From a bacterium (lineage in GTDB: Bacteria > SAR324 > NAC60-12): a DNA stretch of 64,000 bases. The position numbers and the translations under genes were made by a program. The stretch is from assembly GCA_965233585.1 (NCBI GenBank), contig CBDDTI010000729.1:64001-128000 (forward strand), read 5' to 3'. Within the stretch, counting starts at the first letter, position 1. The number at the start of each line of letters is the position of its first letter. Shown here piece after piece: positions 12,456 to 57,549 of the stretch. The notes under the pieces were generated by a model. That model saw nothing but the letters and a program-made list of their open reading frames with translations. It searched no databases and was not told where the DNA came from.

Positions 12456-12631
12456 GATTGATTCAAATTTTTTGATTGTTGAAATTGGTCTTTTTGACTC
12501 GTGACCTATACATTATGAAGAGTCACACAATACTCCTTTAGCAGAGATGTAGCAAACCCATTTTCAAAATCGTTTCCCATTTGGTCTAAAGTTTGTTATG
12601 ATTCTGGATTTAGCTTCTTACTCATAAGCTG

Positions 12632-13105
12632 ATGGAAACTACCTTACTTTTTGACACACTCAAGACCTCCAAACATTTGCAAGCTGCAGGCTTTGAACAA
12701 GAGCAAGCAGAGGCACTGACAGAAGAATTTAAATTTGTTGTAGAAAGCAACTTTGCGAAACTTTCAACCAAAGAACAAGTTTCTGCTTTAGAGACGAATC
12801 TCAATGAGAAACTGGAACAAAAAGCCACCAAAGAACAAGTCACTCACTTACAAGAACAACTGGAGCAAAAAGCCACCAAAGAACAAGTTTCTGCTTTAGA
12901 AATCAGCCTCAATGAAAAGCTTGAGAAGTTTGCTACCAAAGAAGATGTTCAAAATGAACTCAAAGAGGTCAAAGAAGACATCTATTTTTTAAAAGGAGAC
13001 CAGAAGCTCCTTAAATGGATGGTCGGTTTTGGCATTTCTTTAAATCTGTTGACACTTGGAGTCGTGTTAGCTTTTTTGTTTACAGCTACCCTTACTCCTA
13101 CTTAA
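12632..13105 (+). CDS. DUF1640/CCDC90-like coiled-coil protein with C-terminal TM helix
   Basis: FDTL..LQAAGF..EQAEAL, ATKEQV repeats, LKWMVG plus TM. Confidence 0.8.
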   Translation: METTLLFDTLKTSKHLQAAGFEQEQAEALTEEFKFVVESNFAKLSTKEQVSALETNLNEKLEQKATKEQVTHLQEQLEQKATKEQVSALEISLNEKLEKFATKEDVQNELKEVKEDIYFLKGDQKLLKWMVGFGISLNLLTLGVVLAFLFTATLTPT

Positions 13106-13229
13106 AACCCTGCCGCCTATTGCTGACAGCTCTTCCATTTTTTCACACCCCTTCAGTAAAGGTCAACAAACCAAAGGCTTTTTGCTGGCAAATTCAAAAG
13201 AATTTGACGGGGTAGTTAGGAAAAAAAGA

Positions 13230-13316
13230 GAGATTGCGGGTCAAGCCCGCAATGACAAGGAAACGCAGGAATGACAAGTGAGAAAAAACAGAGATTGCGG
13301 GTCAGGGTTCAATGAC
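13230..13316. repeat. REP/RPE-like palindromic repeats
   Basis: GAGATTGCGGGTCAAGCCCGCAATGAC at 13230 and variant at 13291. Confidence 0.85.
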
Positions 13317-14009
13317 TTTAATTTGGTCTGCTTCAGGTTGCAGAAGGTAAACTCCTTTGGCTTTGGCATGAGAGATGAAACGTTCTGGAATGCTTTGACA
13401 GGCAAGCCCCAGATGAATTTGAAAATCCTGATATTGTGGAAAAACAACAGGGAACGTCTCTTTGTGCCTGAACACTTGGTCAAAGTCATCAAGACGAAGT
13501 TTGTGCTTCACTTCTACAATGAAGATGTGAGAGGAATTGTAAAAAACAACATCATACTGCCCAATGACTTTTTTATCGCTTCTTCCCTTCACATTTTTAT
13601 CTACAGAATCATAAGCAACTCCACCAATCATGATGAATCCTTTTTCTTCTATTTCTCTTTGACCAGTACGATAGTAAGCGTCTTCCTGTATGTCGCTTTC
13701 TACCGTGATGTAACTTTCTAGCTTTTTGTTGCTTTCTTTTCTCAAGCGCCTTTCTTCCTTCATTTCTTTCTCCCAAGCGGCATTGGACTCTTGCATCTGC
13801 TTCTCCCAAGCGGCATTGCGTTCTTCTTGCTTTTTAGTCAGTTCTGCTAACTGCTTGCTGTTTTCTTCTTGTTGTTTTGTTAGCTCTGCTAACTGCTTGT
13901 CCGTCTTTTCTTGACGTTTGGCAACAGCATTGACTGTGTCATTGGCTTCTTTAGCGATGACACTGGCTTCTGCCAAGATTTTTTCTATCCTATCTAAACG
14001 TTCTGACAT
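13302..14009 (-). CDS. Coiled-coil plus PD-(D/E)XK nuclease-like protein (DUF3782-like)
   Basis: N-terminal coiled coil with internal repeats; QYDVVFYN..IFIVEVKH. Confidence 0.75.
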   Translation of the reverse strand: MSERLDRIEKILAEASVIAKEANDTVNAVAKRQEKTDKQLAELTKQQEENSKQLAELTKKQEERNAAWEKQMQESNAAWEKEMKEERRLRKESNKKLESYITVESDIQEDAYYRTGQREIEEKGFIMIGGVAYDSVDKNVKGRSDKKVIGQYDVVFYNSSHIFIVEVKHKLRLDDFDQVFRHKETFPVVFPQYQDFQIHLGLACQSIPERFISHAKAKGVYLLQPEADQIKVIEP

Positions 14010-14073
14010 CTTTACCTTTCAATTTAAAATTCAAAAAACTTGAGTATAGCATTTTTTGACAAAAGAAAAAAAC

Positions 14074-14328
14074 AGATTGCGGGTCAAGCCCGCAATGACG
14101 AATGGTCAAGGTGAGCAATGACCAAAAAACAAGCCCACAGGTGAGAAAGTGAGGAATGGGAAAAAGAGAAAGATTGCGGGTCAAGGTGAGCAATGACTTA
14201 AGCACAAGCCCGCAATGACAGTTCTGAAGATGAGTAAATTCCTCTGTCATTCCGTGCTTGATACGGAATCTCAAAAAATAAGAGTTGTTTGGGAAAAAGA
14301 GAGATTGCGGGTCAAGGTGAGCAATGAC
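14074..14328. repeat. Cluster of ~6 REP/RPE-like palindromes
   Basis: AGATTGCGGGTCAAG(CCCG/GTGAG)CAATGAC units and GTCATTCCGTGCTTGATACGGAATCTC. Confidence 0.85.
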
Positions 14329-22898: not shown

Positions 22899-24791
22899 TC
22901 AAAAGAACATGCCGTAGCCTAATTTGAAGAGATGGTCGCGTTGTGTGTCTTGGTAAGTGAGGCGGAACTCATGGTCTAATTGGTAGGCATAGCTGAGTTG
23001 CAAAGTGCCTTCCAGAGGCAAGGTAGGAATGTCTGCAAATTGATATTTTCGTTGAGCCAAAAGCATCTGCCAAGTCCACTGCTTGTGACTGCCAAGCCAT
23101 TGGAGTTCTGCTTTTGTTGCTAATGTTGTGTGTTCTTTTTGAAAATCTTCAGAATGTTGCAAGACGGCTGCCAACAGAGGTGAAAGCAAAGAGTTTTTTG
23201 CTAGGGCAATGGTATATCCTAAACCCCCTTGAAAATAAGCATATCCGCATTTTTCGCACTGAACATTGGGTCTAAAATTCCGCTCCCAGCCTGTTTGAAC
23301 CTTCCAAGAAAATCCTGACACAAAGTCATCACGGGGAATGAATGACATCAATTCAAGAAAAAGGAAGCGGTCTAGCAAAATTTGTGTGTCGTCAATTCTA
23401 ATGTCTGTCTCTAAGGCTTTGATGGAGGCGCCAAAATCATAGCCTTGAGGGAAGTCTGCAAGCCCATGATAAGAAGCCCGATATTGCAGATTTAAAAAGT
23501 TTTTTTGACTGAAAAGGTCTCTTCCTAAACTTGTTGTGAATTTAGATGTTTCATGTCCTTGTTCATAAGAAAAATCAGGTTGTTGGACGGAATTTTGTGA
23601 TTGATAAGGGATTTGAGAGCGTTTTCTGAGCAGTTGACGCCAGCGGTTTTTTTGTTGCTTCTTGTCCTCTCTCAATAAAATCTTGTCAGACAAGGTTTCT
23701 AAGATAGTGGCTTGCACACGGGGGTCTTGCTGATTCCATTCTGAGCTATCTACCAATGTTTCATCATCATAGACTCTTCTTGCAAATTCTTTTTCAGCAG
23801 AAGAGAGGGATTGAAACTTTGCTTGTGCTTGATGCAGTCGTGAGGGTCGGTAGTTTTTTTGTTTGAGAATGCCGGGAATTTTTAAAACTTCTCTGACTGT
23901 ATCCACAGGAGCCGCCCACAAGTTAAAACGTTCTCTCAACTGGTATTCTGGCTTTGCCGCTTCAAGCAACGAAAGCAGTTGATAAGAGCAGTTTTCTAAG
24001 AAAAAGAAATAACGGAATCTGACAAATCGCAACTCCCAAAAATGTTTCATCAGCCTCTCAATTTCTTCTGGTGTCAAATTAAGCTCATATTCCCAAATGT
24101 CCCGTCCTTCTATATCGTTATATTCTTGGATTTTGATGTAGTAAGGAGTGTTTTGCATGACTCCTGTGTAGCCTCCAAAAATTCCCCAAAGTGCGTATTT
24201 GATGGGATTTTCTGCCTCTGGATTGACAACTGCACCATAAGTGACGTTGTAATTCAAGGGGGCAAAGTCTTCCCTTCCTTTGGTGTTTAAAACAAGTGAA
24301 GTATGTCCAAAGATGGTGGCAGGTGCGGTGAGGCGTGAGCCGGGAAAAATGAGATTGATAGATTCAGGATTGAGTCGTTTAATCCAACCTTCGTAACGTG
24401 GGCAAGGGATTTCTGGCAGTAAATTAGGATTGAATTGTAATTGTGTTTTGAGCCAGCTGTAACGTGCAACGAACTGGCATTGTTTATGGAGTGTCTGGTC
24501 ATTGTCTGGAGGGGGATTAAAAAAAGCCTGTAACGTGGCTTCCAATTCGCTTTGGGGGTCAAACATGCCCTCTTTAGAATTAAAAAAATTGGGGTCTTCA
24601 ATTTCTGACCTTGCCCCAAAAACGCCGCTGCGATAATGCAATAACAACAACCAGTAACGACTTTCCGAAATTTGCTTCTGATTGGCTTGTCTAATGAGAA
24701 GTTGAAGGTATTGGTCTTGGGAGGGTGTCAGTGCCTTGACAAAAGAAGGCACTAGGAAGAGAAGAATGAAAAAGAGGGGTTTCAAAGACAA
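22899..24791 (-). CDS. DUF4105 (Lnb N-terminal-like) domain outer-membrane protein
   Basis: W..LLHY, CQFVARY.W, FGHT, YFFFLENCSY, C-terminal beta strands ending in F. Confidence 0.8.
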   Translation of the reverse strand: MSLKPLFFILLFLVPSFVKALTPSQDQYLQLLIRQANQKQISESRYWLLLLHYRSGVFGARSEIEDPNFFNSKEGMFDPQSELEATLQAFFNPPPDNDQTLHKQCQFVARYSWLKTQLQFNPNLLPEIPCPRYEGWIKRLNPESINLIFPGSRLTAPATIFGHTSLVLNTKGREDFAPLNYNVTYGAVVNPEAENPIKYALWGIFGGYTGVMQNTPYYIKIQEYNDIEGRDIWEYELNLTPEEIERLMKHFWELRFVRFRYFFFLENCSYQLLSLLEAAKPEYQLRERFNLWAAPVDTVREVLKIPGILKQKNYRPSRLHQAQAKFQSLSSAEKEFARRVYDDETLVDSSEWNQQDPRVQATILETLSDKILLREDKKQQKNRWRQLLRKRSQIPYQSQNSVQQPDFSYEQGHETSKFTTSLGRDLFSQKNFLNLQYRASYHGLADFPQGYDFGASIKALETDIRIDDTQILLDRFLFLELMSFIPRDDFVSGFSWKVQTGWERNFRPNVQCEKCGYAYFQGGLGYTIALAKNSLLSPLLAAVLQHSEDFQKEHTTLATKAELQWLGSHKQWTWQMLLAQRKYQFADIPTLPLEGTLQLSYAYQLDHEFRLTYQDTQRDHLFKLGYGMFF

Positions 24792-25261
24792 ACGCCTTGA
24801 AGTTTTGGATCCTTCTCAATGAGTTGTTGGGTGTTTTGCAAGACTTGTTGAGGCGTTGCTGTATCTGTAAAGATGTCGTCATATTGCTGTTGAGAAACTT
24901 GATTAAAAGTGTCTGCTTGGCAGTTTAACAACTTGCTGTAAGAGCTTAAAAACAACCCTTGTCCTTGACTCATCTCTTCTGAAATTTTGTCAAAATTAGC
25001 TTTGACAAAAACCTCTGCTTCATATTCTGCCTTCACCACATCATCGGGATTACATCCAGAAGTGCCACTTGTAATTGCAAAAGTCTGCGACCCTGACGAG
25101 TAATTTGTTACCATGACTGATAAATTGGCTCCGAATCCTTTTTGTCCTTTAAAAAGGAGATAACCCGGACCACAACCAGAAGTTGCACCTGCAAAGCTCA
25201 AAGTTGTTGAGAACCAGAAAACAGCAGTGACGATGCCAGCGATTTTAGTCAATTTCATCAT
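24782..25261 (-). CDS. DUF3015 family secreted protein
   Basis: Signal peptide, GCGPG..TN..FAITSGTSGC. Confidence 0.82.
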   Translation of the reverse strand: MMKLTKIAGIVTAVFWFSTTLSFAGATSGCGPGYLLFKGQKGFGANLSVMVTNYSSGSQTFAITSGTSGCNPDDVVKAEYEAEVFVKANFDKISEEMSQGQGLFLSSYSKLLNCQADTFNQVSQQQYDDIFTDTATPQQVLQNTQQLIEKDPKLQGVCL

Positions 25262-25322
25262 AATGAACCTTTAAAGTTGAAAATTAAAAAAGCACCCAAG
25301 TTGGGCATGATTCAAGAAGCTA

Positions 25323-25814
25323 TTACAAGCAAGCAACTTGAAGTTTTGGATTTTCTTGAATGAGTTGTTGTGTATTCTGTAAAACTTTTTGAGGCGTTGC
25401 CATGTCTGTAAAGATGTCGTCATATTGCTGTTGAGAAACTTGATTAAAAGTGTCTGCTTGGCAATTTAACAATTTGCTGTAAGAGCTTAGAAACAAACCT
25501 TGCCCTTGACTCATCTCTTCTGAAATTTTGTCAAAATTGGCTTTGACAAAGATTTCTGTTTCATATTCTGTTTGCACCACATCATCAGGATTACAGCCAG
25601 AAGTGCCACTTATGAGTGCAAACACGTCTGATGAGTATGTGCCATTTGTTGTGACGGCTGATATGTTTGGGACAAGACCTTTCTGTCCTTCAAAAATTTG
25701 AGAACCCGGACCGCAACCAGAAGTCTTGCCTGCAAAACTCAAAGTTGTTGAGAACCAAAAAACGGCAGTCACGATGCCAGCGATTTTAGTCAATTTGAAC
25801 ATAATGAACTCCAA
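25323..25814 (-). CDS. DUF3015 family secreted protein, tandem paralog
   Basis: Same motifs; near-identical N- and C-terminal parts to 24782..25261. Confidence 0.82.
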   Translation of the reverse strand: MEFIMFKLTKIAGIVTAVFWFSTTLSFAGKTSGCGPGSQIFEGQKGLVPNISAVTTNGTYSSDVFALISGTSGCNPDDVVQTEYETEIFVKANFDKISEEMSQGQGLFLSSYSKLLNCQADTFNQVSQQQYDDIFTDMATPQKVLQNTQQLIQENPKLQVACL

Positions 25815-35637: not shown

Positions 35638-37929
<2,292 letters not shown>

Positions 37930-37936
37930 TCTTTTC

Positions 37937-38023
37937 CATCAGGTAGTGAGTGATGCAAAGGCGCCAGGGGTTAATGATATTAACGCCGATATGAAGAGTT
38001 AACCGACTTCCCGCTACCTGATG
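37937..38023 (+). ncRNA. Putative structured ncRNA, copy 1 (87 nt)
   Basis: 12-bp terminal stem, two internal hairpins, covariation with copy 2. Confidence 0.7.
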
Positions 38024-38046
38024 CCCTTCAATTTTCCGCTTAATCG

Positions 38047-38075
38047 TTGACAAGATTTCTTCAGTGTTCTACACT
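38047..38075 (+). promoter_or_regulatory. Second sigma70 promoter
   Basis: TTGACA-17 nt-TACACT. Confidence 0.68.
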
Positions 38076-38165
38076 GACTCCTAGCTTCTCTGTTGTAGAT
38101 GCAATCAAGATAATCAGGTTTTGGCTTGTGGCTTCAGTGCCGCCTGACTTGGTTATCTTCTTTTT

Positions 38166-38252
38166 CATCAGGTAGTGAGTGATGCAAAGGCGCCAGGGCG
38201 AGATAATTTCAAAGCCGATATTGGGAACTAACCGACCCTCCGCTACCTGATG
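38166..38252 (+). ncRNA. Putative structured ncRNA, copy 2 (87 nt)
   Basis: Same length and stems as copy 1; 3' arm overlaps stop codon of the convergent PBECR-like gene. Confidence 0.7.
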
Positions 38253-38588
38253 CTCTTTAAAACACCTTCTTTTAATTTATCCTCAATATCTTTTAAATCT
38301 ACCTTAAAAGCTGTTTTAACGCTTTGGGAAAAGACCTCTTTCTCTTTAAAATTAGGGTGAATGATCACTTTAATCACTTTGTCATTTTTGAGCTTTCTGA
38401 TGAACAATAGATTGCTATCTTTTTTTTGCAAATAGACTGCATCAGGGTTGGCAAGAATGTCAGGCAGCTGCATCCATTCTTCAGGAGACAAGGCATTTTG
38501 AGACTTGGCATGACGTGCTGCTTTTGTGCCAGAAAACAAAGAAGATTCCAAGACAATAGGCTCATCAAGAACACACCCCGTCCCGTTG
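38243..38588 (-). pseudogene. C-terminal PBECR-like (barnase/EndoU/colicin/RelE fold) domain of a Mu-like MuF head protein, 5'-truncated by IS1
   Basis: K..RH...AL..EEW..LP..L..P.AV...LLF pattern; frame stays open to the IS end at 38588; no ATG/RBS. Confidence 0.65.
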
Positions 38589-39228
38589 GGCAGTGTTCAC
38601 TTGGTGTTGCTATTGGATGTAAGAGTGAATTTGAGGAATGGGGATGAGAAGTTGTCATCATTGTGGGAGTCAGACTTACATCAAGAATGGAAGTTGCAAA
38701 GGAGTGCAGAGATATGTTTGCAAATCATGTGGGAGGTCGTTCAGTTCAAATGGGTTGAGAATCCCACTAGAGACGAAGCGTCAAGCTTTAGAAATGTATG
38801 TCAATAGTGTAGGCATCAGAAAGATAGATCGTTTTGTAAAAAGCCAAAGAGTAGCTGTTTGGACAGCCTATTCTCGTCAAGAACAATGTGTGATTGCCTT
38901 TGTGATAGGCAAAGGATTAGCAGCAGCAAAGCAGCTGTATGCACTAGTCAAAGCACAACGAGCTAGAATTGAAACGATTTATACAGATGCCAACTCATGC
39001 TATCAAGTGGCATTTGCTCAATGACAGATTCCAGAGAACCATGAAATCGGTAAAAAAAGACTCATCTCATTGAATCTTCTAATTCTTCCATCAGAGATAA
39101 CCTAGCTCGTTTTATGAGAAAATCAAAACGACATTCTAAAACTTTGGACATGCTGGAACACTCTCTCAAACTCTTCTTTCACTATAAAAGACTTGAAAAA
39201 TATCATGCCAACAACAAGTGAACACTCC
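38589..39228 (+). mobile_element. Decayed IS1-family element
   Basis: TIRs GGCAGTGTTCACTTGGTGTTG / CAACAACAAGTGAACACTCC; Zn ribbon CHHCGS..QRYVCKSC, YTD, THLIESSNSSIR; internal deletion, TGA at 39022 and frameshift; no TSD. Confidence 0.85.
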
Positions 39229-39230
39229 GT

Positions 39231-39682
39231 GTGAAAATAGGGGCAGGAATCCAGTCATGTAAGAATCTGTGCTTGGTTTAAGATGGATTCCGTGTCAAGC
39301 ACAGAATGACTAACAGATTGCAGACTTGTTTTTTGGTCATTGCTCACCTTGTTCCGCAATCTCTCTTTTGTTTTTTGAGATTCCGTGTCAAGCACGGAAT
39401 GACGGCTTGCTCTTTTTCTCATTCCCCTGTCATTGCTCACCTTGTTCCGCAATCTCTATACAACCGTTATTGCGGGCTTGACCCGCAATCTCTTTCTTTT
39501 TCCCAGCTTCTTCATTTTCCCAAACAATTCTTGTTTTTTGAGATTCCGTGTCAAACACGGAATAACAACTATTGTCATTCGGAGCGAAAGAACGTCCCCC
39601 CTGTGAAAACAGGAGCAGGAATCCAGTCACGTATAGGAATCCATGCTTGGTTTAAGATAGATTCTGCATCAAGTGCGGAATG
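39231..39682. repeat. Cluster of REP/RPE-like palindromes framed by ~80-bp direct repeats
   Basis: GATTCCGTGTCAAGCACGGAATGAC, GTCATTGCTCACCTTGTTCCGCAATCTC, ATTGCGGGCTTGACCCGCAATC; GTGAAAA.AGG.GCAGGAATCCAGTCA at 39231 and 39603. Confidence 0.85.
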
Positions 39683-39792
39683 ATTCAGTGCGGTTTGCAG
39701 GATTGAGTTTGAAAATCAGTCAGAATTTTGACAAAATCAATTCTTTAGAAAACTTTTGATTCAAAAATTTTTTGAAAATTGGGGTTGTCTGA

Positions 39793-51524: not shown

Positions 51525-51914
51525 TTACTTGGCAGGAGGAAGAAAAGAAAACAAAAAAGCTAGCATGACACCAAGTGTAATCAGATTTAAAGAAATGCCA
51601 AAACTTGCCATCCATGACAACAACTTAAATCTGCTATCAATTTTCTCATTAAGGTTCATTTCTAAATGAGACATTTTCTCATTAAGGTTCGCCTCTAAAC
51701 TAGCAACCTGCTCCTTAGTCGCTTTTTGATCCAGTTGTTCATTGAGATTTGTCTCTAAAGCAGAAACTTGGTCTTTGGTAGAAAGTTTTGCAAAATTGCT
51801 TTCCACAACAGATTTAAATTCTTCTGTCAGCGCCTCTGCTTGTTCTTGTTCAAAGCCTGCAGCCTGCAAGTGTTTGGAGGTCTTGAGTGTGTCAAAAAGT
51901 AAAGTGGTTTCCAT
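51525..51914 (-). CDS. DUF1640/CCDC90-like protein, paralog of 12632..13105
   Basis: First ~60 aa almost identical to the 12632 gene. Confidence 0.8.
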   Translation of the reverse strand: METTLLFDTLKTSKHLQAAGFEQEQAEALTEEFKSVVESNFAKLSTKDQVSALETNLNEQLDQKATKEQVASLEANLNEKMSHLEMNLNEKIDSRFKLLSWMASFGISLNLITLGVMLAFLFSFLPPAK

Positions 51915-52085
51915 CAGTTTATGCGTGAGAAGCTAAACCCAGAATCATAACAAATTTTAAGACAAAATGGAAAGAGGCAGGTTGTCAAGAGGTTAGTCCA
52001 AAATTTCTCCTTAATTGAATTAATTTTTCTGGATCAGATCTAAAAAGCGATTTTTCTGTTACTTCCAACAGCCTTTCACTTTCTT

Positions 52086-53762
52086 TTATTTTTTAGGTTG
52101 GTTTTCAATTTTATCAATATTATCATCTACCAATTCCCTTAATACGATAAAAGCATTTTTATAGATGGGTTGCCATTTATCATCCAATGGATTGACTATG
52201 CTATGAAAAAGTATATTTCTAAGTTCATACACAAACTTTACGAACCATTTCAGTTCTGCTAATTTTTTATTGTCATTTGGTTTTGTGTAATTTTTATAAG
52301 GTAATGGCTCAAATAAATTTTCTATTGCAAAATTACTTCTTATGCGCTGAAAACAAGTTGTTATCGCTTGATTAAAATTATTGGTATTGTTAAACTATAA
52401 GTGATATGCGATATTAAGTTCATTTAATTGAATTGATAGTCATGGTGTAGCAATGAAGTTGTGTCCTAGATGTGAAAGTGAGAAGACGGTTAAGAATGGT
52501 TTCTTATATGGTAAACCGAGGAGGCGTTGCAATGCCTGCAACTATCAATATACCAAGTCCTATCGTGGCCAAATCTCACCACAGATCAAAAGAAGAGCAT
52601 TAGAGTTGTATTTGGAGGGTCTTGGTTTCAGGTCAATCGGTCGTTTGCTGAATTGTTCTCATGTTTCAGTTTATAATTGGGTCTGTAGTTTTGGCGAACA
52701 GCTCAAGGCATTAAGAAAGGACACAGACATTGAAATTATGGAAATTGATGAAATGCACACCTACATCCAGTCAAAAAAAACTACTGCTGGCTCTGGATTG
52801 CTGTTGATAGATGTGGGAAGCAATTTATCAATTGTGTGCTTGGAAACAGAGACTCAAAAGCCTGTAGGCATTTATGGGACAAGGTCAAGGAAACAAAACC
52901 TCTTCAGGTGATGACTGATCACTGCAAGGCTTACAAACAAGTCATTCCCAAAGAAATTCATACATGTTCCAAGGCAGAAACATACACGATAGAAGGGTAT
53001 AATTCTCTCTTGAGACATTTCTTGGCAAGAATGAGAAGGAAAACCAAATGTTACAGCAAGTCTCTTAAAGCATTACAATATTCTGTTCTTTTGTTCATGG
53101 CAAAACGGAATAATCAGCTATCACTTATTACTTAACAATGCCAAATTATTTTCTGCTTTCTCTTTTTGTTTTTTAGTAAGCGGTTTGTATATTTCAGTTA
53201 AATTATTTTCTACATTTTCTTTTAATTGGTCTAAAATATCATCTTTGTTGTAATTGTTATTGCTTATAAATTTATCAATAGAAATTTTACCCGTCAAAAA
53301 ATATTTTTTACTGTTTTTTAATAGTGTCTCTGTTTCTTTTCTATTGTCTTTAATTTCTATATACAAAATTTTATCATTTTTATTTTCTTTATCTTTTCCA
53401 ATTTTGATTTCATAGCTAAATTTATTTTTCCTGTTTTGGATTTCTTGCTTTTGCTTAAATTCCTCATTTAATCTATAAAAAGTATAAAAATGGTATTTCT
53501 TTAATTTTTCATCGTTTAATATCAATTTATTAGATGCTTTGTGTATATCACAAATACATTGATAAATGTCTTCGTTTGTATTAGCTGGAATTGCTATGTT
53601 TTTAACTGCTTCTTTGATAAGTTTCCCATCTCCTGAATTAATATCAACATCTTTGTATAATTCGTGTAAGGTTGATAAATAAGCAAACCAAGATTTGATG
53701 TACAATGAAAAATAATCTACATCAATAGACTGTCGCCAATTTTGATATTTAGCTTCACTCAT
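52086..53762 (-). pseudogene. HEPN-domain protein interrupted by IS1
   Basis: Removing the IS and one TSD restores a 302-aa ORF containing YELRNILFH (Rx4H). Confidence 0.82.
52383..53142 (+). mobile_element. IS1-family element, apparently intact
   Basis: TIRs GGTATTGTTAA / TTAACAATGCC, 8-bp TSD AAATTATT, ORFs 52453..52911 and ..53135 joined by A8C -1 slip at 52773-52781; DEMH, MTD, IEGYNS motifs. Confidence 0.93.
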
Positions 53763-55167
53763 TGCTTTGTTGCTCTATAAACTCCAGCCCCGCATCTTCT
53801 CCCTCCTCAATCGCCACCTCCACCGCTTGCTTGGCTACTTCCAACAATCTTTCGCTTTCTTTTTTGAGGGCAAAACTTTGTTCTATTTTTTTGGCGGTTT
53901 GGGTTTGGGTTTCTTTTTTGATGATGGGAAGTATAAAATTTTCTATATCTTCATTTCTTATTTTAGGCTGACCCGTTTGAGTTTTATATTTATTTATTTG
54001 TTCTTGAAACAATAACGAATGCAACAATACTTCAAAAAACAAAGGATTAAAAGTATTGCCTAATAAACATAATTTAGATGTATTATTTGATATAAAACTA
54101 TGATTTAGTTCTTTAGGTATCCTATTAGATTTTCCTATAGTATCTCCTATTGTAGCAATGATAAACTCATTTTCTTGAACAATAGTTTCATTTGTATGAA
54201 TAAATTTATCATCAATATAAATAATTTGTTCTTGGTTTATAAATCCACTTTTTGATAATTCTTTAATTCTAATATAAGCCCTTTTTGAGTCTTCAACATA
54301 ATACTCTTTATCTATCAAAGAACCATTACTAATTTTTGATATTTCACCTAACTTCAAATATCCATTTGAATAAGATTTTATCTTTTTCTCTAATTCCTCA
54401 TACTTCGGCTGATAATATTCCGCATCCAATCTACCACTGGTGCCAAAACTTTCGCTAAAATTTTTAACGCTTACTTTTTCTTGTGATGGGGTAAAATCCT
54501 TTAGTCCCACTTCTTCCAACAACAACGCTTCAGCTTCACGGTAGAGGGTTTTAGAAGTGTCTAATTTGTGATGAGCTTGTTTGACTAATTTTTCTATTTG
54601 GAGTTGGAAGGTTTGAGAAAAAAGAGGAATCTTTACATTCAAAACATCATGATCGGTAATGGCAGGATACATTGTTGCCGTATTTTCTCTCATCATTTTA
54701 GTTGTGAAAAATTTTGTTTTTAGAAAAGAATACACAAAATAGGGATTGATTAATTTTTTATCAATTCTTAAAACAGCAAAGCCACTTGTACCCACCAAGC
54801 GTTTAGAATTTCTTATAAAAGCAACAGCATTTCTATTAGGTCTAACCGTAGATACAACAATATCATTTTCTTTTAAACAGTAAGTTGCTCTATCTGGAAT
54901 AGTAGAACAATCTATAACTTCTGTTGTATAATCTAAACCTTTTAAATGTACTCCAGATATGGACAAATAGTTAAAATCTTTTTTGAGTTTTAAAGATTTT
55001 ATATTGATAACAGTTTCCTTTTTTAGATAAATCCTTAATGGTTTCCCTTGTAAGTAGTTTTCATTATTAAGCAAGAATTTTAAATAATATTCACTATCTA
55101 ACCTATTCCTGTAGCTTTGTTGATAAGTTTGAAAATCAATAATACTTATTTCCAGCCCCTCCAACAA
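53755..55167 (-). CDS. Restriction-modification specificity subunit, two TRDs
   Basis: Repeated RLD(S/A)EYY plus IKIP/ILP-helix conserved regions. Confidence 0.88.
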   Translation of the reverse strand: MLEGLEISIIDFQTYQQSYRNRLDSEYYLKFLLNNENYLQGKPLRIYLKKETVINIKSLKLKKDFNYLSISGVHLKGLDYTTEVIDCSTIPDRATYCLKENDIVVSTVRPNRNAVAFIRNSKRLVGTSGFAVLRIDKKLINPYFVYSFLKTKFFTTKMMRENTATMYPAITDHDVLNVKIPLFSQTFQLQIEKLVKQAHHKLDTSKTLYREAEALLLEEVGLKDFTPSQEKVSVKNFSESFGTSGRLDAEYYQPKYEELEKKIKSYSNGYLKLGEISKISNGSLIDKEYYVEDSKRAYIRIKELSKSGFINQEQIIYIDDKFIHTNETIVQENEFIIATIGDTIGKSNRIPKELNHSFISNNTSKLCLLGNTFNPLFFEVLLHSLLFQEQINKYKTQTGQPKIRNEDIENFILPIIKKETQTQTAKKIEQSFALKKESERLLEVAKQAVEVAIEEGEDAGLEFIEQQSNE

Positions 55168-55226
55168 AGCCTGATATTTGGCATCATCAAAGGGGCTTAA
55201 TACTTTCCCACATTTTCATTCCTCCT
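55154..55226 (-). promoter_or_regulatory. Putative programmed -1 ribosomal frameshift signal
   Basis: AGGAGG-11 nt-G GGA AAG-5 nt-long stem-loop linking the RM and S frames. Confidence 0.65.
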
Positions 55227-57263
55227 TTTGTAAAGGGGGCTAGGGGGATTTTTATCTCTGCTTTGTGGGCTTTGCCAAAAACTCAAATTTTCCTTTTTGG
55301 AAAATTCAATGAAGGCTTCAGCGATGCCATCTTGGGTTTGTCCTTCGTGATTAAAGAGGTCATGTTTGACGATTTTATGCCCGTGTTGGTCTAATTGGTC
55401 TAATCCATCTGAACGTTTGACAAAGATTTTATCGCCGCTGTTGTCTTTGCTGGGTTCTTGTTGAGTAGCAAAAAAGATGGGGTAATCGTCTTTTTTAGGA
55501 CAAAGTGTTTCGTCCCATTTTTGCACAAACAACACGCTGGTTTTGGTGCCTGTATGGGGTTTGAAGACATTGCCATGCAAACCGACTACGGCAAGTATTC
55601 GGCATCGTTCGGCTATGTAATCTCTGATTCTTTTATCGCTGGAGTTATTAAAACGTCCTTGTGGTAAAACGATTGCCATGCGTCCGCCATCTTTTAGAAA
55701 GTTAAGATTGCGTTCTATGAACAAAATATCTCGCCCGACTTTGTTTTCATATTTGCCGTTTTCCTTTTTGCCCAAATCATACAGGCTAAACAAATCGCTT
55801 TCTTTGATGTCTCCTGCAAACGGTGGATTTGCCATGAGAAGATCAAAGTTAAAATCGCGGTTGCTTTGCTTGCTGTTTCGTATCCTTTTTAGTTTTCTCC
55901 AACCTTCATAGTAAGTATCAATCCAATCCTCTTCTTTTTGAGTTTCGTCCCATCTTTTGTAATCCAAAGTATTCAAATGCAAGACATTGGTTTGTCCATC
56001 TCCTGCAATGAGGTTTAACGTTCGTGCAACGCGTACTGCTTTTCTGTCAAAATCAATGGCAAACACTTTGTCTGCTACATAATCCATACATTCTGCTGGT
56101 TTTTTCTCTGTTGTGAACAGGTGGCTTTTGGAAAGTCCTTTCTCTTTTAAAATCTGCTCCCAGACATAAAACATGGCATGCACAGGAAAGCCACAACTGC
56201 CTGCGGCGGTGTCAATGATGGTCTCTTCTTTTTGTGGATTGAGCATTTTAACGCACATGTCAATGACGTAACGTGGGGTAAAATATTGACCTTTCTCGCC
56301 TTTGCTACTTTGGTTCATCAGATACTCAAAGGCTTCATCTACCACATCTAAATTAGAGTTAAAGAGTTTGACATTTTGCAAAGATGACACACAAACTGAC
56401 AAGTGAGAAGTGGTCAGGTTGATTTTATCATCAGGGTTAAACACACTTTGCCATTTTCTCTTTGCCTTATCAAAAAGCCCTTGTATTTTTTGTTTAAGCT
56501 CGGTTTGGGTATCGCCATAATTCCTAAACTGCAAATGACGTTTTTCGTCCCGTCCGCTTTCCATTTCATCATAAAGTTTGGTAAAGATGAGCTTAAAGCA
56601 TTCTTCAAAAGCATCTACTCCTGCATTTGCCAAAACCTCATCTTCCATTTCTTCAATGAGGTCTTTCAACGATTTACGTTCTTTGACTAATTTGTCCTCT
56701 CGTTCCAAATCTTTCCAAGTCCAACGTTCGGTGAGAATGTCAGACAGCTTTTCAGTGGCTTTGGGCAGGCTTGTCAGGTCTTCAAAATAATTGGGGTCTT
56801 TGCGGTGATAAAAAGAGATTTGCTCGCCATTTGTCCAAACGGCAATCGGTGAACCTGTGGCATTGCAGTAGCTTTTAAGCTGGTCTTTTCCATCTCTGAG
56901 CTTGGGCTGTTTCACTTCTACAATGATATAAGGATCGGTGGGTCTGTCCTTGTCAAAGATGACAATATCAGCTCTTTTGATTTCTCTGCCAAAATGCACG
57001 GGATATTCGCATTGCATGCGTTCAAAAGGGTATTGGTAACCTTCATTTAAAATGATGAGATAAAGCTGTCTGATGACTTCTTCGGGGGTGAGTTTGATGT
57101 CTTTCTTTCTGACCAAGCATTCAACATGGGGAATTTCTTCACCTTTTTTGTTGGGTTTGCTGAATATCTTACTTTCTAAACGTGGAATGACGTATTCAAA
57201 GCCTTCTTCAGAAAATTGCTCTAGGCTGTAATTAGAATCTTTTAAAATGTCTGTCAGTTTCAT
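55197..57263 (-). CDS. Fused PD-(D/E)XK endonuclease (HsdR_N-like) plus N6-adenine methyltransferase (Type IIG/IIB-like)
   Basis: TPEEVIRQ, ADIV..IVEVK, GQYFTPR, DTAAGSCGF, NPPF. Confidence 0.9.
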   Translation of the reverse strand: MKLTDILKDSNYSLEQFSEEGFEYVIPRLESKIFSKPNKKGEEIPHVECLVRKKDIKLTPEEVIRQLYLIILNEGYQYPFERMQCEYPVHFGREIKRADIVIFDKDRPTDPYIIVEVKQPKLRDGKDQLKSYCNATGSPIAVWTNGEQISFYHRKDPNYFEDLTSLPKATEKLSDILTERWTWKDLEREDKLVKERKSLKDLIEEMEDEVLANAGVDAFEECFKLIFTKLYDEMESGRDEKRHLQFRNYGDTQTELKQKIQGLFDKAKRKWQSVFNPDDKINLTTSHLSVCVSSLQNVKLFNSNLDVVDEAFEYLMNQSSKGEKGQYFTPRYVIDMCVKMLNPQKEETIIDTAAGSCGFPVHAMFYVWEQILKEKGLSKSHLFTTEKKPAECMDYVADKVFAIDFDRKAVRVARTLNLIAGDGQTNVLHLNTLDYKRWDETQKEEDWIDTYYEGWRKLKRIRNSKQSNRDFNFDLLMANPPFAGDIKESDLFSLYDLGKKENGKYENKVGRDILFIERNLNFLKDGGRMAIVLPQGRFNNSSDKRIRDYIAERCRILAVVGLHGNVFKPHTGTKTSVLFVQKWDETLCPKKDDYPIFFATQQEPSKDNSGDKIFVKRSDGLDQLDQHGHKIVKHDLFNHEGQTQDGIAEAFIEFSKKENLSFWQSPQSRDKNPPSPLYKRRNENVGKY

Positions 57264-57384: not shown

Positions 57385-57458
57385 TGCACCCGGGAGGACT
57401 TGAACCTCCAACCTTTGGATTCGAAGTCCACTGCTCTATCCGATTAAGCTACGGGTGC
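57385..57458 (-). tRNA. tRNA-Arg(TCG)
   Basis: GCACCCG..CGGGTGC-A, anticodon loop CTTCGAA; CCA not encoded. Confidence 0.94.
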
Positions 57459-57472
57459 TTGGAGGAGAAATC

Positions 57473-57549
57473 TGGGGCAAGCAAAGGGACTTGAACCCTC
57501 GACCACTGGAATCACAATCCAGCGCTCTACCAACTGAGCTATGCCTGCC
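57473..57549 (-). tRNA. tRNA-His(GTG)
   Basis: G-1, GCAGGCA..TGCTTGC-C-CCA, anticodon loop TTGTGAT. Confidence 0.94.

Follow-up and report, generated by a model that had tools for sequence, protein, structure and literature searches.

Cleavage of tRNAs is known from several BECR nucleases, among them colicins D and E5. The RNase-fold domain at the C-terminus of the F protein of Mu-type phages, MuF_C, has been assigned to the PBECR clade (Iyer et al. 2017, section 19, PMC5512222), and in the part of that paper concerned with the domain both its target and its control are given as unknown. Full-text literature searches, together with passages of that paper and of a 2026 BECR preprint, turned up no account of an RNA gene beside F. 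Here we analyse a stretch of 64,000 nucleotides (nt) from a bacterium of the SAR324 lineage (NAC60-12; assembly GCA_965233585.1, contig CBDDTI010000729.1, positions 64,001 to 128,000 of the forward strand), referred to below as the window and numbered from its first letter. It contains two copies of an 87-nt cloverleaf-shaped element, E1 and E2, which are convergent with the remnant of an F gene. A tRNA-like gene occupies the corresponding place in other Mu-like prophages, so that the phage F enzyme may have an RNA partner not yet described. With a probability of about 40%, E1 and E2, together with a third and partial copy, are a small-RNA module that represents the local form of a recurrent Mu-like arrangement and provides the RNA partner of the F RNase. 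The central features of the locus are the following.

37937 to 38023, plus strand: copy 1 (E1) of the 87-nt cloverleaf-shaped element, inside a conserved module at 37921-38031
38166 to 38252, plus strand: copy 2 (E2) of the 87-nt element, inside a conserved module at 38150-38260
38243 to 38596, minus strand: the 117 C-terminal codons of an F (gp30-type) gene from a Mu-like phage, with a MuF_C/PBECR domain assigned with Pfam

The two copies had been proposed in an earlier note made from the sequence alone, and our analysis places them at exactly the positions given there. They are identical at 71 of 87 positions, with all 16 differences clustered between positions 34 and 74 and none in the first 33 nt, as the earlier note had also claimed. 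This run of 33 nt is the longest that they share (permutation p = 0.003), and the 33-mer finds two matches in the window at up to three mismatches compared to an expectation of zero (100 shuffles). The homology between the copies is sharply bounded and comprises 111 nt in each case: the 16 nt upstream of the 87-mers are identical at 12 positions and the 8 nt downstream at six, while the sequences beyond are unrelated (8/44 and 13/52 identical). A spacer of 142 nt separates the copies, giving a distance of 229 nt from start to start. The flanks are not direct repeats, and no target-site duplication is present.

Both copies adopt a four-way junction, formed by a closing stem and three hairpins, in the minimum-energy fold and also in the RNAalifold consensus. 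Of the 24 pairs in this consensus, three are compensatory, with two located in the third hairpin and one in the variable middle hairpin. Each copy has the closing stem, which includes one U-G pair on the plus strand and measures 12 base pairs (bp) if G-U pairing is counted on the strand opposite F and 10 bp if it is not. The earlier note took this pair to favour the plus strand. The stem and the pair are real, but the minus strand folds equally well: the folding z-scores against shuffled sequences are -3.8 and -2.9 for the plus strands of E1 and E2, respectively, and -4.0 and -2.3 for the minus strands. Because both strands fold well, it is only the G-U pairs that argue for the plus strand. 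The variable segments, each described as a hairpin, form a perfect hairpin of 6 bp in E1, while in E2 the hairpin has no more than 4 bp and requires a shift in register; when they are held in register, RNAalifold retains two pairs, one of them compensatory. The third (3') hairpin is formed by 3–4 bp around a 10-nt loop in which we see no T-loop motif by inspection. Three of its pairs are in register, and for two of these the compensatory changes that had been pointed out are confirmed (A-U to G-C), whereas the fourth pair named there is G-C in E1 and U/U in E2.

The 3' arm of E2 overlaps the last 10 nt of the convergent MuF_C open reading frame (ORF), including its stop codon (TAG, 38245-38243). 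The assignment of this ORF to the MuF C-terminal, PBECR-type domain is upheld by Pfam (MuF_C, 38.9 bits against a cut-off of 27.6), with PBECR3 (24.0 against 30) and PBECR2 (23.1 against 27.1) both below their cut-offs. An exhaustive profile search with the fragment retrieved 79 relatives. The best of these, P0122, has 422 amino acids and 65% identity and is a full-length F protein of Mu-like transposable phages: with P0122 as query, tblastn matches 421 phage records at F, the 'minor head protein and DNA pilot'. The window fragment aligns to the last residue of P0122 (...GVLKKIR) and other close relatives likewise end in ...IR, so that its C-terminus is native and complete and the arm of E2 is the gene's own end, not a sequence brought by an insertion. 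The fragment also retains the His (in RH) and the Thr (in TAFKV) at the conserved MuF_C columns, which are occupied by His in 71 of 78 and by Thr or Ser in 69 of 78 relatives; the roles of the two residues are taken from what section 19 of PMC5512222 says of them. An AlphaFold model of the domain is predicted with good confidence (predicted local distance difference test score 91.4). Compared with the PDB it gives no match at an expectation value (E) below 0.001, and the weak top matches (template-modelling score 0.35–0.44, E of 0.13–0.9) include HigB2, RelE, YoeB, BrnT and a CdiA-CT. A tblastn search with the fragment itself gave no match among phages and a single match among plasmids, in Thiodictyon.

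The earlier note had made something of the fact that no immunity protein gene follows the RNase-fold ORF. This argument carries no weight, since an intact F is followed by the head gene G and everything downstream has been deleted here. We examined the sequence downstream of F in annotated Mu-like phages and prophages, a sample of 13 distinct loci including the window. F and the next gene overlap by 1–8 nt in Serratia, Y. ruckeri, MP22, JBD67 and Mu, as well as in Yersinia phage YpM_23 (whose F is identical to that of Mu over the part compared) and in a plasmid prophage of the same type from E. coli. In Thiodictyon, E. coli pO165 (the same prophage is also found in STEC411), the Pasteurella phages Pmp9 and AFS-2018a, B3 and C. 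coli, F is followed by a gap of 112–125 nt, and in Rhizobium by a longer one. For each locus we measured the longest possible stem with a span of 65–100 nt and one end no more than a few nt from the F stop. The seven loci with a gap have contiguous stems of 7, 11, 12, 9, 8, 10 and 13 bp, which span 72–100 nt, and the window has one of 12 bp; in the six entries lacking a gap (five distinct loci) the longest anchored stem is 4–6 bp. By comparison, a length of 9 bp is attained at 8% of 9200 random anchors, of 10 bp at 3.6% and of 12 bp at 0.55%. Six of the seven gap loci fold as cloverleaves of 72–92 nt, and exactly three branches are found inside the closing stem of the minimum-energy fold in eight of nine elements including E1 and E2 (the exception being B3), compared to 8–21% of shuffled interiors (300 trials each; 19–20% for E1 and E2). 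The idea that a convergent structured RNA accompanies the RNase-fold domain is thus independently supported by the elements at the F stop of other Mu-like prophages, and overall the interpretation offered by the earlier note is partly supported.

A stem that always sits at the F stop codon might instead act in cis, either in the sense strand, as a structure in the late mRNA that uncouples or regulates the translation or processing of F and G, or as a DNA site. The overlap of 1–8 nt between F and G in the loci without an element implies translational coupling, whereas G begins 112–124 nt further on where the element is present. The minus strand of E1 and E2, which folds as well as the plus strand, also displays two constant blocks able to pair with each other. 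What speaks against this account, which we regard as unlikely, are the strand on which tRNA features are read in three of the lineages and the distribution of a histidine some 100 residues upstream, both of which are described below.

In the E. coli pO165 gap, the strand opposite F matches the Rfam tRNA model with 31 bits (cut-off 29). RefSeq annotates a tRNA-OTHER gene in this gap, on the minus strand and 2 nt after the F stop. The region with this gene is found in 228 of 5426 complete E. coli genomes. The elements of Pmp9 (L021) and of the Thiodictyon plasmid (L007) match the tRNA-Sec model below its cut-off (25.0 and 25.7 bits, respectively), again opposite F. In all three of these tRNA-like elements, which are 72–83 nt long and have their 3' end 0–4 nt from the F stop, a T-arm and a D-arm are readable on the strand opposite F, contrary to what a cis-acting sense-strand structure would lead one to expect. 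Those of AFS-2018a, C. coli and Rhizobium form a closing stem and three hairpins on the same strand. The G-U pairs of four elements (those of the window, E. coli, B3 and Rhizobium) point to the strand opposite F as well, which likewise argues against an action in cis. On that strand, sites with a promoter-like score of at least 9/12 end 4–12 nt before the 5' end of three of seven elements (E1, E. coli and AFS-2018a), compared to a background of 2.1%.

Phages carry tRNAs that counter anticodon nucleases. The tRNA-like character of the element in three lineages and the promoter-like sites upstream of it could accordingly mark a tRNA mimic that serves as an anti-defence decoy against tRNA-cutting defences of the host, in other words a moron with its own promoter that is unrelated to F. 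We consider this quite unlikely, as the middle arm of the E. coli element, where the tRNA model leaves 24 nt unaligned, has no 7-nt anticodon loop, and as such a decoy would explain neither the constant anchoring at the F stop nor the presence of the element only with a His-bearing MuF_C domain.

This last association emerges from a profile alignment of the F proteins. The canonical MuF_C histidine is found in the window, Thiodictyon, E. coli pO165 and Pmp9, and a histidine about seven residues upstream of the canonical column in AFS-2018a, C. coli, B3 and Rhizobium. F lacks such a histidine in Mu (and hence YpM_23), JBD67, MP22, Serratia and Y. ruckeri, the very loci in which F and G overlap. 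Therefore, all eight distinct loci with an element have the histidine and all five without an element lack it. The contrast is also seen within clades, between E. coli pO165 and Mu (whose C-termini are 42% identical) and between B3 and JBD67 (both Beetrevirus). A purely cis-acting role would leave this link unexplained.

From the anatomy, position and recurrence of the element and from its link to the histidine, we infer that it is transcribed, that it binds the F RNase and that it functions as follows. An RNA of about 87 nt (111 nt with its flanks) would be transcribed from the plus strand towards the F gene of a decayed Mu-like prophage, with its 3' end overlapping the F stop, and would fold into a cloverleaf consisting of the 12-bp closing stem and three hairpins with a variable middle arm. 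In the Mu-like prophages compared, wherever the RNase-fold MuF_C (PBECR) domain retains its histidine, a structured element lies between F and G with its closing stem starting at the F stop. Expressed from its own promoter, the RNA may act as a tRNA-shaped pseudo-substrate or inhibitor, that is a decoy, of the F RNase domain, and so protect the producing cell or the lysogen from the RNase carried in the virion. An RNA-partner mechanism seems the most economical because it agrees with four observations: the element resembles a tRNA in shape, it is tied to the F stop, it is linked to a catalytic residue, and BECR nucleases cleave tRNA. In the window, where F is broken, the array would be either a decaying relic or a retained decoy. 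A bolder version, which we think decidedly doubtful, is that Mu-like phages whose F carries a catalytically competent PBECR RNase domain encode the tRNA-shaped RNA as the immunity factor of this RNase, an RNA 'antitoxin' for an injected effector, and that in the window the array of two to three copies, with its constant scaffold and variable middle arm, was kept by the host after the prophage decayed and diversified into decoys against incoming relatives.

Several observations weigh against a small-RNA partner of the F RNase. The Rfam tRNA models give no match at E up to 10 over 37800-38400, and ARAGORN finds no tRNA gene in 37700-38500 and calls none of the comparison elements. A covariance model built from the E. 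coli, Pmp9 and Thiodictyon tRNA-like elements (R2) misses E1 and E2 at E up to 10 with filters off, while it finds the three real tRNAs of the window; it also misses the elements of AFS-2018a, C. coli, B3 and Rhizobium. Since E1 and E2 are missed by the tRNA models and by R2 and have no T-loop consensus, their likeness to the tRNA-like elements appears to be limited to position and shape, and homology between them is unsupported by these searches. The elements of AFS-2018a and C. coli have no tRNA match at E up to 10 and that of Rhizobium likewise has none. B3 has an anchored stem with no cloverleaf, the stems of B3 and Rhizobium depend largely on G-U pairs, and the strand evidence from the closing stems is mixed (four antisense, two sense and two neutral). 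The covariation is thin, because there are only two full copies. The 13 distinct loci share ancestry, so the histidine link could stem from a small number of evolutionary events. At the locus itself, the best promoter-like site close to E2 scores only 6/12 and no terminator-like site was found. Finally, the sequence context is that of a small prophage relic in a junk-rich spacer.

Further relatives of the 87-nt element were sought in several ways. The Rfam comparison that the earlier note had called for gives no match to E1 or E2 at the gathering score, and no family at E up to 10 anywhere in 37800-38400. A covariance model of E1 and E2 finds no further copy in the 64 kb with filters off, and blastn of a 451-nt region has no match among plasmids or phages. 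We also scanned 185,579 species genomes for the two closing-stem arms separated by 50–80 nt, which gave six loci and no match in the source genome or its relatives. These six proved to be unrelated palindromes from six phyla with no common interior and no F gene ending in an arm. One of them, a chance match of the pattern on a Gemmatimonadales contig (L003, 5176-5261), contains tandem 23-nt units ending in the same 10-nt arm and is unrelated. A 54-residue ORF spanning E1 has no relative in a protein search.

The results of these searches also bear on the possibility that the element is a mobile palindrome of the host genome, of the miniature inverted-repeat transposable element (MITE) or repetitive extragenic palindromic (REP) type. 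Its 12-bp terminal inverted repeats and the sharply bounded 111-nt module have the look of such an element, as does a spacer rich in other small palindromic repeats. However, the absence of another copy in 64 kb even to the covariance model, the lack of a target-site duplication, the identity of one arm with the native end of F, and a genome scan that returned nothing but unrelated palindromes with no F gene make this the least likely of the alternatives and a very improbable one.

A number of other candidates were tried and rejected. An integron attC site does not fit with ends of CATCAGG.../...CCTGATG and a continuous 12-bp stem, as judged by inspection against the attC consensus, and there is no integrase among the ORFs scanned. 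The small ORFs that would be needed for a type I toxin are inconsistent in length and frame by inspection: on the plus strand they begin M-Q-R-R-Q-G... and have 13 and 22 residues, and on the minus strand, from an ATG in the distal arm, they have 16 and 35 residues. The repeats of a diversity-generating retroelement, retron msr/msd, an invertible segment and a Y RNA were rejected by inspection against their known features.

On its upstream side the array adjoins a DNA ligase gene, listed here together with the third copy and two promoter-like sites.

35862 to 37904, plus strand: ligA, encoding NAD-dependent DNA ligase, with Pfam ligase domains
37875 to 37915, plus strand: truncated third copy, a direct repeat consisting of the 3' arm of the closing stem and a tail of about 30 nt
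37901 to 37929, plus strand: promoter-like site TTGACA-17-TAACCT, score 9/12, ending 7 nt before E1
38047 to 38075, plus strand: promoter-like site TTGACA-17-TACACT, score 10/12, in the spacer about 90 nt upstream of E2

The third copy resembles the stretch that follows E1 (38014-38054) at 76% of positions, a score equalled by 5 of 2000 shuffles. The closest relative of LigA, P0003 (84% identity over the region searched), diverges immediately after ...IS(K/Q)WL and has a tail of 17 residues. The final ten or so ligA codons (from about 37872) are therefore foreign sequence that comes from the truncated third copy, which means that the array was joined to ligA by a deletion. On the minus strand, every unit has a reading that ends ...LKxIR*. 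The view that the units are three copies of the 3' end of F was nevertheless rejected: the arm aside, the stretch after E1 compares to the end of F no better than shuffles do (1307 of 2000 score as well).

A promoter-like score of at least 9/12 is reached by 2.1% of 6000 random positions. The standard promoter scan finds four sites in 1 kb, compared to 1.3 ± 1.3 in shuffles, and does not report the site at 37901-37929, whose second hexamer matches at three of six positions only. Just 3' of the site at 38047-38075, about 15 nt of the spacer (38086-38101, plus strand) are similar to the 3' part of a type V-A CRISPR (clustered regularly interspaced short palindromic repeats) repeat with one stem base missing; this may be chance, and the Rfam scan at E up to 10 yields no family of CRISPR repeats at this position.

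On the other side, the minus-strand ORF of the F remnant spans 38243-38551 and its frame remains open to about 38596, where it runs into an inverted repeat (38592) of a remnant resembling the insertion sequence (IS) IS1, in agreement with the IS truncation proposed earlier.

38592 to 39226, no strand assigned: IS1-like remnant with 18-nt inverted repeats, containing an ORF (38638-39024) with an IS1 zinc-finger N-terminus

The ORF of this remnant scores 71.3 bits with the NCBIfam IS1 transposase model (cut-off 100) and 39.1 bits with the IS1/IS1595 zinc domain (cut-off 28), and the 5' part of F has been lost to it. With F truncated in this way, everything downstream deleted and ligA fused to a partial copy, the whole array might be no more than debris: a segment of the F 3' end that was duplicated locally, became palindromic by templated (quasi-palindrome) mutation and acquired its identical blocks by gene conversion. 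Dispersed REP-like palindromes occupy the same spacer, and the element has just two full copies and was found nowhere else in the 64 kb, in phages and plasmids or in the genome pattern scan. We nevertheless think this account improbable, since independent phages have the same placement, size and three-branch topology, the 33-nt runs are identical where the flanks become random beyond 16 and 8 nt, and three of the pairs are compensatory.

Some other features of the window deserve mention. The dispersed REP-like palindromes (units such as ...GATTGCGGGTCAAGCCCGCAATGAC) fill the spacer beyond the IS remnant, at 39227-39700, and recur 25 kb away at 13214-14328 in the opposite orientation. An inverted repeat of 268 nt with 88% complementarity (12573-12840 and 51706-51973) links two small ORFs, at 12632-13105 on the plus strand and 51525-51914 on the minus strand, which both contain internal repeats of 33–108 nt and probably encode paralogous repeat proteins. 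Tandem paralogues are found at 24789-25268 and 25330-25809, as adjacent ORFs of about 160 residues with 81–88% nucleotide identity. The region from 52000 to 56000 has a G+C content of 0.32–0.34, compared to about 0.41 elsewhere, and carries restriction-modification genes, which code for a specificity subunit and for a methylase that has a type I R-protein N-terminal domain. A pair of tRNA genes (57385-57548) adjoins this low-G+C stretch, which is possibly a horizontally acquired island.

If a conserved RNA gene is indeed tied to the catalytic histidine, it would offer a first handle on what the MuF_C domain recognises, namely a tRNA shape, and would show a phage protecting its own translation from the F RNase domain. 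An RNA inhibitor of a virion-delivered effector would then join the known restraints on RNases. Since the E. coli version is present in 228 complete genomes, the idea is directly testable in a laboratory strain. If, however, the link merely reflects shared ancestry, the element of the window would be an ordinary relic.

Several known systems invite comparison. MITE, REP and Correia elements resemble the element of the window in having terminal inverted repeats, a length of about 100 nt and an intergenic position overlapping gene ends; they differ in that it is not dispersed in the 64 kb, has no target duplication and shares one arm with the native coding sequence of F. Phage tRNAs and the bacterial Y RNA YrlA are alike in being cloverleaf small RNAs on a mobile element that are possibly bound by tRNA-binding proteins, whereas the element of the window has no anticodon loop and no match to tRNA or Y RNA and is fixed at the stop of one gene. 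Type III toxin-antitoxin systems, with RNA antitoxins of the ToxI type, also place a repeated structured RNA beside a protein of endoRNase fold, and the logic of an RNA neutralising an RNase is the one proposed here. The analogy drawn by the earlier note fails on layout, however, because the units of the window are convergent, downstream and spaced (87 nt long and 142 nt apart) instead of being head-to-tail repeats upstream in the same operon; in addition, the protein is a domain of a virion protein and not a ToxN-type toxin, and the element matches no Rfam family. The comparison with type III systems thus holds as logic but not as membership. Closest of all are the E. coli tRNA-OTHER gene and the elements of Pmp9 and Thiodictyon, which also lie opposite F, beside a His-bearing MuF_C domain, with an extended stem, three hairpins and promoter-like sites upstream. 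Those elements have a canonical T-arm and D-arm, score with tRNA models and are present in one copy, whereas in E1 and E2 the stem measures 12 bp, the third loop has 10 nt and the T-loop motif is missing, and the window holds two full copies and one partial copy. What E1 and E2 have in common with the comparison elements is their position, strand, size and topology.

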